From Octopus vulgaris (lineage: Eukaryota): a stretch of 64,000 bases of DNA. Shown one piece after another: positions 6,701 through 34,410 of this stretch. The position numbers and the translations under genes were made by a program. Below the pieces are notes generated by a model that saw only the letters and a list, made by a program, of their open reading frames with translations, searched no databases and was not told the DNA's origin. The stretch spans positions 77,934,001-77,998,000 of the forward strand of contig OX597819.1 of the NCBI GenBank assembly GCA_951406725.2, given 5' to 3'. Every line of letters starts with the position of its first letter. Positions within the stretch are counted from its first letter, which is position 1.

Positions 6701-7114
6701 CAAGTGGTGACGACTACCGGTCGTGATTCTTAACTCGAATAGAACTGTAAGCGTTTGATGCTAGTCTAAATGCCAGACGTCCAGTTTTGGTCTTCCGTCG
6801 ACCAAGGACTGCAGTTCCATCAAAGAGACCAGCTACAAAAAAACTTGTCTCATAAAAAGTGAGTAGACCTTTTTCACTATCCGATAATCTCTGCAGATAT
6901 TACAACTTAAGTACATGCCTGCAAGTTCAACAGCTACGACCGGCCGAGCTCTCCGCGCAGATGGTGTCGGGTGCAGACAATTTCTGACCTTCTACACGGA
7001 GCAAAAGATCAGGGCTCCAAGCATGATGGTCAGATGGCATGATGGTAGAAACGTACGCGTCCACCATACCTTTACTTAACCCATCAGAACTAGCTCTCAC
7101 TTAGAACAGTGATA

Positions 7115-7468
7115 TTATTCATATTATTTACATTCGACGGATATTTGTCCTCATCCTGTTTGTTGTTAACACAGCGTTTCGGCTGATATATCCTCCAGCC
7201 TTCTTCAGGTGTCTTGGGGAAATTTCGAACCTGGGTATTTTTCGATGTTATTATTATTATTTTTTTATACTAATAATAACATTGAAAAATACCTTAGGAA
7301 TGAGAACCCAGGTTCGAAATTTTCCCAAGACGCTTGATGAAAGGTGAAAGATATATCAACCAAAACGTTGTGTTAACAACAAGATGAGGACAAATATCCG
7401 TCGAATGTAACTAATGTAAATAATGTAAAAAATGTACATAATTCCTCATCTCTTGAATATAGAACTGA
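7115..7468. mobile_element. Palindromic hammerhead-bearing retroposon (same family as 33461-33889; tRNA head lost)
   Basis: Inverted arms around an (ATT)/(AAT) centre; flanking direct repeats AGAACAGTGATA (7103-7114) and AGAACAATGACA (7469-7480). Confidence 0.85.
7168..7213 (-). ncRNA. Minimal type-I hammerhead ribozyme motif
   Basis: Minus strand GACAC-CTGAAGA-A-GGCTG-(10 nt)-CAGCC-GAAA-CGCT-GTGTT. Stems I and II pair; the cleavage triplet is mutated in this copy (family consensus CGTT). Confidence 0.65.
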
Positions 7469-19353: not shown

Positions 19354-20610
19354 CAGGGGTTGGACAAAATAATGGAAACACCTTAAAATTTCAAACAAAT
19401 TTATTTTAATTTGGCAATAATTACAGCTTGAATTCTACGAGGTATGAACTTGTACAAAGTTTGAATTCTTTCCAAAGGAATTTTTGTCTTTTCCTCAGCT
19501 AAAACAGTCTCCAGGTCTTGTAGTGATGATGGTAGAGGATATTGACTCCTTATTTGTTTTTCTAAAATGTACCATGAATGTTCAATAATTTTGAGATCTG
19601 GGGTCTGTGGTGGCCAGATAAGATGTTCAACTTCCCTAGAATGTTCCTCGTGCCATTCAATAACAACTTTAGCTGTGTGATTTGGTGCATTATCATCCTG
19701 AAAGATTGCGTTCCCCTCCAGAAACAGTTCTGAAACCATAGAATGAAATTGATCAGATAAAATGCTTAAATAATCTTGACTATTAATTCTGCCATGAAAG
19801 GAAACCATTGGGCCGGCGGATTTCCAAGATATAGCCCCACCAGATCATCAGAGACCCGCCTTCATGTTTAACAGTTGGAAGAAGGCAGTCTGGGTCAAAT
19901 GCTTCTTTTGGCTGTCTTCACACGTATACTCGGCCGGTGGTGGCAAATAAGGTAAAGGATGACTTCTTCAAGAAAATAACATTCTTCCATTGCTCTAGAG
20001 ACCAATTCTGCAGGTTTTTGTTCCACTCTAAACGCTTTGCAGCGTTTGTTTCTGAAAGTAGTAGTTTTCTGATTGCAACCCTTTCGTGAAATCTAGCCTT
20101 GTTCAGCTCCTGGCGAACAGTTTTTGTAGAAGTTGGGATCTCGAGGTGATCATTAAGCTCTGCAGTAATTTTGGGAGCTGTACTTTTATGATCCTTTCTA
20201 ACAATTCGCGTAAGAGTCCAGCGGTCCCTATCTGAAAGTTTGGGTTTTGTTCCAGAGTATTGTTTCGACAAGGAGGTTTTTCCTTCTTTCTCAAAGGCTG
20301 TCATTGCTTTCGAGAGAGTACTTCTCGATACACCAAACATTTCGGCTGTTTTCATTATGCTAGCACCTGCTATACGAGTACCAACAATTTGAGCTCTTTG
20401 AAAGTTCGATAGATCTGCCATTTTAATGAATTTTAATTACCTTTTTCTTATGATATCTATAAAGAAACAGTAATTTTAGCAAAACATATTAATCAACAGT
20501 AATAATAAATAAAAACAAACAAAAATAAACAAGCCTTTGACGGTTTTATAGATATTTTAAAAATATGATGTTATGATGCTAGGTGTTTCCATTATTTTGT
20601 ACGACCCCTG
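19354..20610 (-). mobile_element. Tc1/mariner transposon, full-length (1257 bp), DD36E type
   Basis: TIRs CAGGGGTTGGACAAAATAATGGAAACACCT and AGGTGTTTCCATTATTTTGTACGACCCCTG with TA on both sides; inserted into an old SINE-A tail. Confidence 0.97.
19401..20421 (-). pseudogene. Tc1-family transposase, disrupted
   Basis: MADLSNFQRAQIVG (paired-like HTH), WKNVIFLKKSSF (first D lost), FQDDNAP, WPPQTPDLKIIE; stop and frameshift between the two ORFs. Confidence 0.95.
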
Positions 20611-30184: not shown

Positions 30185-30369
30185 TATATCATATATACAT
30201 AGTGAAACGATTATCTCACATTACATATAAACATGCATATACATATGTATGTTTGTGTGTGTGTGTGTGTGTGTGTATTCGAGACAATTTGACATATGTA
30301 AAGATATACACAGTGCGACGGTTAAATTGTCGCCATCTTATATTTTAAATTTCGTATATGTTTATTGTA

Positions 30370-31760
30370 CGATACGTCGTGTCTGTTCCATGACCTGTGA
30401 TAAAGCTTACCGAAAACGGAGCTAGCTTTCCCAATTCTGAACTCGATGGAACCAAGATAAGTGAAGGAGGAAACAGATTTTAATGCTTTCCCATCAACAT
30501 ATGCAGTAAGAGAATCAGCGGGAGGATGTTCACGAATGGGCTGATGGACGAGCTCAGTTTTTTTGATGTTGATGGTCTGACCAAAGGCTTTCGATGCATG
30601 CAAGATGTTTAGAATACATTGCATGTCCTCAAGAGTTTGTGTTGCAAGTACATAATCGTCTGCGAAGAGCAAATCTCGAACTATTTGCACCAAAGTTTTA
30701 GTTTTTGCTTTGAAGCGCTGTTGGTTGAACAATCCACCACCAGTTTTGTACTTAAACTTTACTCCTTTAACACCCTCGAACGCTGTTTCCAACATGACGG
30801 AGAAATACAAAGCAAATAAGTGTGGTGCAAGAACACAGCCTTGTTTTGTCCCACTGAGATTGTGAATGAATTGGACATTTCCCCACTAGATCTGACAGAA
30901 GCCATCATCCCTTGATGGAAAGAAATTATCACATTAAGCATCTTTTCTGGAACACCTAGCTTTCTAAGGACAATCCAAAGAGCATTCCTAGATGCGGTGC
31001 CGAAAACATTAGTTAGATCTACAAAAGTGACAAAAAAGGTTTCGGCTGAGCTCACGAGCCTTTTCCTGCAGCTGCCTTAGGTTAAAAATCATATCCACTG
31101 TGCCTCTACTAGCCCGAAATCCACACTGATATTCTGGCAACGCTAAGCTGGCAAGGGCATCATTTAGTCTATTTGAGATAACCCTTCCAAGGATCTTCCC
31201 AGCTACACACAAAAGGGAGATACCTCAATGGTTGTCACATTCACATTTGTTACTTTTGTGCTTATAAAGATAGACAATAGAAGCATCTTTGAACTCCTGT
31301 GGGACTGATCCTGATTTCCAGATTAAAGAGAAGAGTTCACATAACTTGTTCAGCAGGAGACTGCTACCACATTTATATATCTCGGCTGGTATGCCATCGT
31401 TCCCAGGCTACTTTCCATTCGTGAGCTGTTTTATGGCCTTTTTTATTTCAGCATTTGATGTAACAGCTGACAGTTCTTCAAGGACAGGCCTTTGCGGTAG
31501 GTTAATGATCAATTCTTCATTAACAATTGAGTCCATTTTCAGAACATTTGAAAAGTGCTCTGCCCAGGGCTTCGTGATCTGTTTATTTGTCAAAAGATTA
31601 CCTTCAGTTGAAAGTATGGGAGTGAGCCACCAGACACAGATCCAAAAACTCTCTTTAAATTCATGTAGAATGACCTAGAATTACATCTGTCCGCAGCATC
31701 TTGCAATTCTTCCTTTGCCCCCATTTCTCTTTCATTTGCCTCTGTAGAGATTGGCATGTA
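30370..31760 (-). pseudogene. RTE-clade LINE reverse transcriptase fossil
   Basis: WAEHFSNVL, EIKKAIKQLTNGK, GKILGRVISNRL, LPEYQCGFRASRGTVDMIF, FVDL, QGCVLAP, GGLFNQQRFKAKTK, LLFADD, FTYLGS, spread over frameshifted ORFs. Confidence 0.96.
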
Positions 31761-32461: not shown

Positions 32462-33548
32462 GTTGTTGTTGTTACTGCTGTTCTTGTTTTAAATTTGCAT
32501 TAGAAATTAATTAAAAAAAAGCTAAGTGCCGCAAATTAATTAACGAAAACAAAATCATGAGCAGTTACCGCATTTGTAAGAAACTCAACGGGATAAAGAA
32601 ATATTAACTTTCAAGTTTTATTTAATAACATCAATGAAGCTGAGTGTAATTAGAGAACAAATCAGACCAGTCTGTTGAATAGGAAATGCTTAACAAAAGC
32701 AACCATTGTAAGCAGATATCACAGACAAAAATATATATAATGTTGTAAGGAAAACAGCATTAAATGCTATTTTCTGAATTATAAAAACCCTCTTCAGGAA
32801 AGTGGAATAGAGAATGCTACAGCCTTTTTCAGATAAAAGGCATTTGAAAGAACGATGTTTTGACCATTTCAAAATCACCGGGCATAAACAGCAACAGCGT
32901 TCATATAAATTCTTACCACAGACAGATTGTTTTTAATCCTATGTTATTGTTTAGAAGAAAATTTTTAACAGTTGGGTGCTGAGAACCGAGCCTTGATGGG
33001 CGCCTACTTGCACAATAAAATCGTTACAGCACGCGAACACATGGTGTGCATGGAATTTCAAAGCCATTTATATAGAATCAGTTTTCCTATCAATCATTGG
33101 AATATAATGCAAAGAAAGTTGTCAAAGGTCTTCTTAAAGTCAATAAATGCCATGAAATGTGGCTAGTAGTTCTTGGCTAAGATCTTATCCCGTAGTTGTC
33201 GTATTAAAAAGAGATATCGGCTCTTCTCTGCCGTTGCACAAACTAGGGCTGTTTCTCATCTAATTTGATTTATCTTATTAATTAGCTGTGCTATTATAAA
33301 AAAAAAAAGAAAAAACACCTGGCAGCGATCTAGCAGAACCGTTAGAAAGCAGGATAAAATGCTTAGAGGATTTCTTTCTGCATTTTCTTTTTGTATTGTG
33401 GGTTGTTTGTGCAATGCAGGTTGTGTTCTTCTTTTGGGTATCGAATTTCTATGGCACATACAGTTCTATATTTAAGAGATGAGGAATTATGTACACTATT
33501 TTCATTATTTACATTCGACGGATATTTGTCCTCATCTTGTTTGTTGTT

Positions 33549-33594
33549 AACACAACGCTTCGGCTGATATACCCTCCAGCCTTCTTCAGGTGTC
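33549..33594 (-). ncRNA. Type-I hammerhead motif (left arm)
   Basis: Minus: GACAC-CTGAAGA-A-GGCTG-(10)-CAGCC-GAAG-CGTT-GTGTT; decayed partner on + at 33792-33834. Confidence 0.6.
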
Positions 33595-33625
33595 TTGGGG
33601 TAAAACAACCACGCCATAAGCTCAC

Positions 33626-33698
33626 GGGCATATGGCGTAGTGGTTAAAAGCGCGGGCTACTAACCCCAAAATTCCGAGTTCGATTCCAAGCAGTGACC
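33626..33698 (+). promoter_or_regulatory. tRNA-derived Pol III head (A box TGGCGTAGTGG, B box GAGTTCGATTCC)
   Basis: Anticodon-like arm GGG-CTACTAA-CCC; the acceptor stem pairs poorly, so this is not called as a functional tRNA. Confidence 0.8.
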
Positions 33699-33718
33699 TG
33701 AACAACAACAACAACAAC

Positions 33719-33768
<50 letters not shown>

Positions 33769-34084
33769 CAACAACATCAAAAATTCCTTAAGACACCTGA
33801 AGAAGGCTGGAGGGTGTTTCAGCCAAAATGTGTTAAGAACAAACAATATGAGGACAAATATCCGTCGAATGCAAATAATGTACATAATATTCTATGGCAC
33901 ATGTTGTGGGTTTTTCATAGTAGTCATGGTTATCTGTCCATCATTCTGTTATTTTTTTTTTTTTGGTTGATTTTGTTATGAGTTCGTAGTTACAGCGGTG
34001 ACTTTTTGACAGACCCCCGCCCATAGACATCCGTTGATATTTCTTTGGTATTGATAATTATTACCGTATTTATTATTATTATTA

Positions 34085-34164: not shown

Positions 34165-34410
34165 AGGCGGCGAGCTGGTAAAATCGTTAGCACGCCGGGC
34201 AAAATGGTTAGCGGTATTTCGCCAGTCGCTACGTTCTGAGTTTATATTCCGCCGAGGTCAACTTTACGTTATGAATTCAAATTTTGCGGGCACCAGCTTT
34301 ACCTTTCATCATTTCGGGGTCGATAAAATAAGTACCAGTTATGTACTGGGATCGACACAATCAACTTACACTTCCCATCAAAATTTCTGGTTTTGTGCCA
34401 AGATTCGATG
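34165..34410 (+). mobile_element. SINE family B
   Basis: GGCGGCGAGCTGGTAAAATCGTTAGC...; small internal duplication. Confidence 0.9.

Follow-up and report, generated by a model that had tools for sequence, protein, structure and literature searches.

A head-to-head repeat of Octopus vulgaris as terminal repeats of an autonomous Penelope-like element with a tRNA-derived head and a candidate RNA polymerase III promoter

We are highly confident that the feature at 33447-33902 of the window (the whole 64,000-nucleotide stretch of Octopus vulgaris DNA that was analysed) is a head-to-head pair of pLTRs, the terminal repeats of an autonomous Penelope-like element (PLE). As a full mechanism we moderately favour an autonomous PLE which carries a tRNA-derived head with A and B boxes and is likely transcribed from this head by RNA polymerase III (Pol III). 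The further-reaching claim, that an autonomous coding retrotransposon captured a tRNA-type promoter, is transcribed by Pol III from end to end (2.65 kb and more), was purged of TTTT and sheds tens of thousands of SINE-look-alike pLTRs by internal priming, has in our judgement about an even chance of being correct. Retrotransposons are described as divided into coding elements driven by Pol II and short non-coding elements driven by Pol III (PMC5786205, PMC10886601), and a coding element with a tRNA promoter would, if true, break this division and show one way in which SINE-like repeats originate directly from an autonomous element. It also raises the testable question of how protein is supplied from uncapped or read-through RNA, and its sharp 5' end would offer a natural readout of the PLE mechanism, with its two internal priming sites, 12-13-bp stagger and template-end snap-back. 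Copies of this kind would in practice receive a SINE annotation although they are PLE ends.

The insertion and its parent element

The layout of the insertion is given in Table 1. The first-pass annotation had described a head with A and B boxes, an (AAC/AAT)n linker, a hammerhead tail, head-to-head arms and a 13-bp target site duplication (TSD), all of which were recovered where it had placed them, as were the four tail arms that it had counted within the 64-kb window. It had also seen an inverted, internally deleted copy upstream: the inverted copy is there, but reads better as a tail arm joined to a fold-back of ~20 nt of the head, and the mirrored stretch at 33604-33623, which is the mirror of the head start, is likely to be cDNA snap-back at the RNA 5' end rather than an internal deletion. 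Similarly, one end is complete and the other shorter as described, although the shortfall is ~28 nt (m151 vs m179) and not about 25 nt. The long arm translates into PKTPEEGWRVYQPKRCVNNKQDEDKY..., resembling the N-terminus of the related protein P0003, and its reading frame agrees with the ORF in locus L092. Elsewhere in the window, a different interspersed repeat lies 260 bp downstream, behind an (ATT)n tract (34165-34350, with similar sequence in several loci), which we take to be probably a common SINE of the host genome, and there are a Tc1-like transposase remnant in two frames (19401-20436, minus strand; L022 sits in a similar element) and a LINE reverse-transcriptase fragment (30322-30885, minus strand, ..DLLFADD..).

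Table 1. Features of the head-to-head insertion, of a second insertion in the window, and of insertions into the linker at other loci
Feature	Position	Strand	Remark
TSD, left copy, 13 bp, TTCTATGGCACAT	33447..33459	.	letters read directly
Long arm, 3' part of pLTR (m43-m179), start of the PLE ORF	33460..33603	-	the one-sided tail is formed by the outer ~28 nt
Minimal type I hammerhead, left arm	33549..33595	-	core GAAA mutated to GAAG
Fold-back of the head's first ~20 nt plus 2-nt loop (AC) of the TGCCC-AC-GGGCA hairpin; symmetry axis	33604..33625	-	
tRNA-derived head, first part of pLTR	33626..33700	+	A box 33633-33643, B box 33678-33686
(AAC/AAT)n linker	33701..33771	+	length differs between copies
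Remnant of middle segment	33772..33790	+	~30 nt with the ORF's ATG absent relative to the family majority
Minimal type I hammerhead, right arm	33791..33834	+	G12>A and 3-nt in-frame deletion in stem III
Short arm end, without tail	33835..33889	+	stops at m151
TSD, right copy, 13 bp, TTCTATGGCACAT	33890..33902	.	letters read directly
Second head-to-head insertion of the same PLE family	7114..7467	.	short arm and long arm joined in the linker, headless
Insertions interrupting the linker	L009:886-1392, L025:1653-2115, L039:816-1483, L049:1583-2699, L062:2643-3215		

Across the family, the order of the unit is head, linker, ATG, hammerhead, tail, the rest of an 835-codon frame, a 29-nt spacer and the next head. 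This majority frame of the copies opens at the ATG in the middle segment and runs through hammerhead and tail, which make up its first ~50 codons. In 27/29 loci selected with the ORF (L069, L077 and L086 in this set apparently being duplicates of one locus), the ORF lies directly upstream of a head that begins 29 nt after the stop; L081 and L086 break off earlier, and L089 keeps only 10 nt of the head. At the other side, the tail runs straight into the ORF in 12/30 loci selected by the N-terminal part of the ORF, in frame in L092; L128 has the full arrangement of pLTR-ORF-pLTR, and L094 opens with the head and runs on into the ORF. A Penelope-type reverse transcriptase (RT) frame also lies upstream of the head in L022 and L052, which were recovered with the short unit and no ORF query. 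Apart from 400 kb of arbitrarily chosen sequence, all loci are best matches and not a random sample, and a recurring inverted junction in the ORF-selected loci was discarded as an artefact of the query.

The 835-aa majority protein carries YVDD and YSIPC..YKGET..HVW..EAAH. A real copy matches Pfam RVT_1 (E 5.5e-10), telomerase RT is among the weak PDB matches, and 51 relatives were found at E<=1e-20, with a 53%-identical relative having the same hammerhead-like N-terminal peptide. The C-terminal motifs YSIPCSC..YKGET..R..EH..DHVW..E are common to P0003, and the putative GIY-YIG-type endonuclease is assigned by motif only: Pfam GIY-YIG (PF01541) matched 1/12 aligned relatives (E 0.017) and left the 835-aa protein itself unmatched. 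An autonomous PLE sharing the tail, as suspected earlier, has been found, in the form of an RT/GIY-YIG-type frame of 835 codons whose first part comprises the hammerhead and tail. The accompanying view of a non-autonomous SINE with a borrowed PLE tail is not supported, since the head is the autonomous element's own terminal repeat and the tail its ORF start. Of the SINE2 characteristics, the unit has the tRNA-derived head with A and B boxes; it is not a non-coding lineage sharing only the 3' tail of a partner, and it ends at two fixed sites in the ORF start and not in a simple repeat or poly(A) made by LINE-type priming.

The linker does attract insertions of other elements, which speaks for an unrelated tRNA-(AAT)n SINE nested by chance inside a PLE palindrome at 33447-33902, but the linkage counts refute this reading, to which we assign next to no probability. 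The head is linked to middle or tail sequences downstream on the same strand in 28/29 other head-selected loci, confirming for other copies the head-tail linkage first seen in the window, and it is linked to the ORF end in 27/29 loci; moreover, all 4 head matches in the 400 kb of random sequence lie inside PLE insertions.

Hammerhead and tRNA-derived head

The majority sequence of the ribozyme (209 arms) reads GACAC-CUGA(U/A)GA-A-GGCUG(A..)CAGCC-GAAAC-GUU-GUGUU, with a core that is conserved across the arms and N7 as the main non-CpG polymorphism. The same hammerhead core combined with different stem II sequences was found in 21/79 related loci, and together with the 209-arm profile this bears out the original assignment to the minimal type of PLE hammerheads. 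RNAfold recovered stems I and II and missed the catalytic fold, as is usual for hammerheads, and was left out of the evidence. Runs under four organism labels all contain the family, and the contigs of these four runs had identical majority letters, with no cross-species covariation readable among them. Shared with the metazoan minimal type I hammerheads of PLEs (PMC4209133) are the CUGANGA core, the single unpaired base before stem II, G10.1-C11.1 and the palindromic AACGUU replacing stem III, and the ribozyme itself does not differ from those described there, save for core mutations in both copies at this locus; pairs of minimal hammerheads on opposite strands, 100-700 bp apart, were already noted in the same paper. 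The hammerhead tail reported for the locus stands, but no intact core is present at 33447-33902 itself, where the cores of both arms are mutated and read ..GAAGCGTT (left) and ..CAGCC-AAAAT-GTGTT (right); the 3-nt deletion in stem III of the right arm belongs to a class common to many copies. Of 281 arms, 20 have one in-frame 3-nt deletion of stem III and 15 have another, so that cleavage by the hammerhead is probably dispensable for insertion, by analogy with Poseidon, whose insertion in vitro is described as not needing the ribozyme (PMC11167929).

With regard to the head, tRNA-Arg(TCG) was the best match among 30 sampled genomic tRNA loci, agreeing at 49/71 aligned positions with a score of 63.5, compared with 38 for the best of 2000 shuffles. 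The A and B boxes are intact and the cloverleaf is decayed. ARAGORN at default settings reported no tRNA in the window, in 30 head loci or in 50 related loci, and a relaxed run on the head was rejected for its implausible fold; Rfam searches of the window, the element and two good copies returned neither a tRNA nor a hammerhead match. The A/B-box pattern was absent from 79 related loci, many of which are incomplete, and from two other PLE families of the genome. These families (L268-L292 and L293-L317) are both abundant, have open stretches of 753 and 557 aa, and contain no canonical hammerhead or A/B pattern in their assembled parts, and the near-identical copies of L268-L292 (94-98%) suggest that this family may be young. 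The (AAT)n linker of the octopus unit is often broken by other elements, some of them LINE endonuclease-like, and is apparently an insertion target (Table 1).

RNA 5' end, snap-back and insertion

Among the arms of the tail-selected and random loci, 52/158 reach the head start, and of these 48 stop within -19..+10 and 4 enter the ORF, with the true ends that were inspected lying mostly between -7 and +8. In genome-wide searches with exact patterns of equal length there were 2335 head starts vs 395 spacer-linked heads. Because 48/52 arms stop at the head start, the sequences suggest that the 5' end of the RNA lies closely upstream of the A box, and the RNA would begin about 4-7 nt before tRNA position 1. 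The sequence TGCCC-AC-GGGCA lies at the head start of the element, and a mirror of the head start is found directly upstream in 38/95 head matches (some loci counted on both strands), with 598 exact matches to the fold-back pattern genome-wide (many counted on both strands). At the template's 5' end, the cDNA would often snap back on this 5-bp hairpin and recopy the head start, giving the symmetry axis, and this would explain positions 33604-33625 of the window. At L060:1357-1575 the first ~17 nt of the head are found three times in tandem at the symmetry axis, which suggests repeated jumping at the template 5' end.

The 3' ends of the arms are bimodal (n=207), with 93 ending at m140-153 and 101 at m170-188, and a short end is paired with a long end in 70/73 two-armed insertions (one locus counted twice). 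TSDs of 10-16 bp flank 38/73 of these insertions vs 0/72 shifted controls. These pairs and TSDs, and the RVT_1-bearing element, uphold the proposal of insertion by PLE machinery, and an inverted partner and a tail of 30-40 nt are described PLE traits (PMC8557442). By analogy with Poseidon of Anolis, a protein dimer would make a staggered cut, and each of the two DNA ends would prime reverse transcription at an internal site of its own (about +128 and +157 from the ATG). Priming in the first pLTR of the RNA and copying back to the RNA 5' end would lead to the short 'SINE-like' pairs, and priming in the second pLTR to the ORF-bearing copies. An anticorrelation between arms at m146 was dismissed as an alignment effect of short vs long ends, and the concordance between arms at m61 and m130 means no more than that the two arms tend to share a subfamily. 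As the 400 kb of arbitrarily chosen sequence contains six insertions, the host genome (2.8 Gb, 227 contigs) is suggested to contain roughly 40,000 (Poisson range roughly 15,000-90,000), and since the copies have a mean divergence of ~8% from the majority (11 arms from the 400-kb sample and the window), the family may be extinct.

That short copies outnumber ORF-linked ones (48 vs 4 and 2335 vs 395 in the counts above) would also be expected of a SINE lineage, in which short copies are Pol III templates re-amplified in trans by the PLE protein, possibly alongside the autonomous element. Short copies do carry the A and B boxes, no T4 and both of the presumed priming sites, and a subfamily lacking the ribozyme triplet was amplified (20 arms, 1 in ORF-selected loci, in a sample biased by the query). 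We consider such a lineage quite improbable, as 93 head-start and 36 ORF-linked arms have no fixed differences and share segregating polymorphisms: the two sets differ with nominal P<0.05 at six positions and with 0.003 at one more, none of them fixed, in a biased sample. Furthermore, frequent indels preserve the ORF frame, with 23, 20 and 15 arms carrying the three most frequent indels of the ORF-overlapping part, all in frame, and 1-nt indels rare (3-5 arms) and located in homopolymers, although slippage contributes to the in-frame indels, since 53/111 singleton indels are multiples of three. Finally, the Poseidon template needs the ORF up to +172 (PMC11167929), which is beyond the tail end, and if the octopus PLE is alike, solo copies would lack it. 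Derivation of the short pairs from the autonomous PLE by internal priming is thus the reading that we prefer.

Transcription and relation to known elements

Judged from sequence, Pol III transcription of the unit is plausible, and the evidence for it overall is suggestive and not decisive. The sense strand of the 2649-nt unit contains no TTTT (T4), where 4.6 are expected by shuffling (P 0.009), 2.9 by synonymous permutation (P 0.027) and 5.2 after scaling to 31 control PLE ORFs (P 0.006), while the rate at which T3 runs extend to T4 in the controls gives P 0.019; this signal comes from one sequence with zero counts. The control PLE frames contain 150 T4 vs 143 expected, and T4 is missing from 3/30 of them, all short (a near-duplicate, L358, was dropped from one comparison), and from 0/9 controls over 700 aa, which carry 3-18 T4. 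Single copies of the octopus element have 0.46 T4 per kb vs 2.15 expected. TTTT may be absent because templates for new autonomous copies can be made only if Pol III traverses the ORF, and the PLE protein may derive from the Pol III RNA or from Pol II read-through.

It is possible, though rather unlikely, that the same autonomous PLE with its tRNA-derived pLTR segment has its RNA made by Pol II, with the RNA starting at or near the head or being cut there from a longer transcript, and with the lack of TTTT due to chance or composition. A first-order Markov null with the low TT frequency of the element itself lowers the T4 expectation to 2.1 (P about 0.13), and G4 runs are absent too (0 vs 1.9 expected), both of which favour Pol II, as does the usual location of the promoter for the downstream ORF, within the PLE pLTR (PMC6765202, PMC11167929). 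A capped RNA would also solve translation, whereas a Pol III RNA would be uncapped and leave translation unexplained, and Pol III has been described as too weakly processive for autonomous elements (PMC10886601). Three other nulls for the absence of T4 (P 0.006-0.027) speak against Pol II, as do the 5' boundary, whose distance upstream of an intact A box is Pol III-like, and the retention of the boxes in a decayed cloverleaf, which we count in favour of Pol III. For the variant with transcript cleavage, an RNase P cut at +1 does not agree with the inclusion of -4 to -7 in many ends. We therefore keep the PLE likely transcribed from its head by Pol III as the preferred reading.

In the comparison with known systems, Poseidon of Anolis carolinensis (PMC11167929, PMC8557442) shares with the octopus PLE a single ORF with RT and, at its C-terminus, a GIY-YIG-type domain (putative in the octopus protein), the ORF starting inside the pLTR at the hammerhead, copies of the form pLTR-ORF-pLTR, an inverted 5'-truncated partner, and a one-sided tail of 30-40 nt from two internal priming sites, whereas the tRNA-derived A/B-box head, the 5' ends piled up at the head and the lack of TTTT are not described for Poseidon in the available text of these papers; the likeness to Penelope/Poseidon-type elements is one of features. 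Sm-alpha and Sj-alpha of Schistosoma (PMC2770079, PMC6765202) also combine a hammerhead with a tRNA-derived Pol III promoter within a single repeat, and a tRNA-headed SINE with a hammerhead, put forward by the first-pass annotation as a new type, is thus a combination already known. They are non-coding SINE-like tandem repeats, whereas the octopus unit belongs to a coding element, as its terminal repeat and the start of its ORF, and is inserted head-to-head with a PLE tail. The TRIMp3 elements Cassandra, Helenus and Ajax (PMC10886601) share a Pol III promoter derived from a small RNA in the terminal repeat, but are non-autonomous LTR elements of 0.3-1.3 kb, in contrast to the 2.65-kb coding PLE, and the same paper considers Pol II obligatory for their autonomous partners. 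Animal non-LTR retrozymes (bioRxiv 10.64898/2026.07.22.740005) are likewise short hammerhead-bearing sequences derived from PLE pLTRs; they form head-to-tail tandems, are non-autonomous and have no tRNA head mentioned in the available text. A search of the published literature turned up, in the texts available, neither a tRNA head nor a Pol III promoter for any PLE, and no such element is mentioned in the accessible parts of PMC13282606 (the octopus repeat annotation), PMC8967140, PMC5786205 and PMC4758252; the family may already be listed in the supplements of the octopus annotation.

In public RNA reads (3 raw-read runs of one study, organism C) both strands were equally represented and there was no pile-up of starts at the head, a pattern suggestive of passenger transcription that argues neither for nor against Pol III. 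The pLTR part of L126 (2814-3150) was abundant in RNA reads (X21-X23), on both strands. Head-to-head copies in transcripts would form double-stranded RNA and could be substrates for editing.
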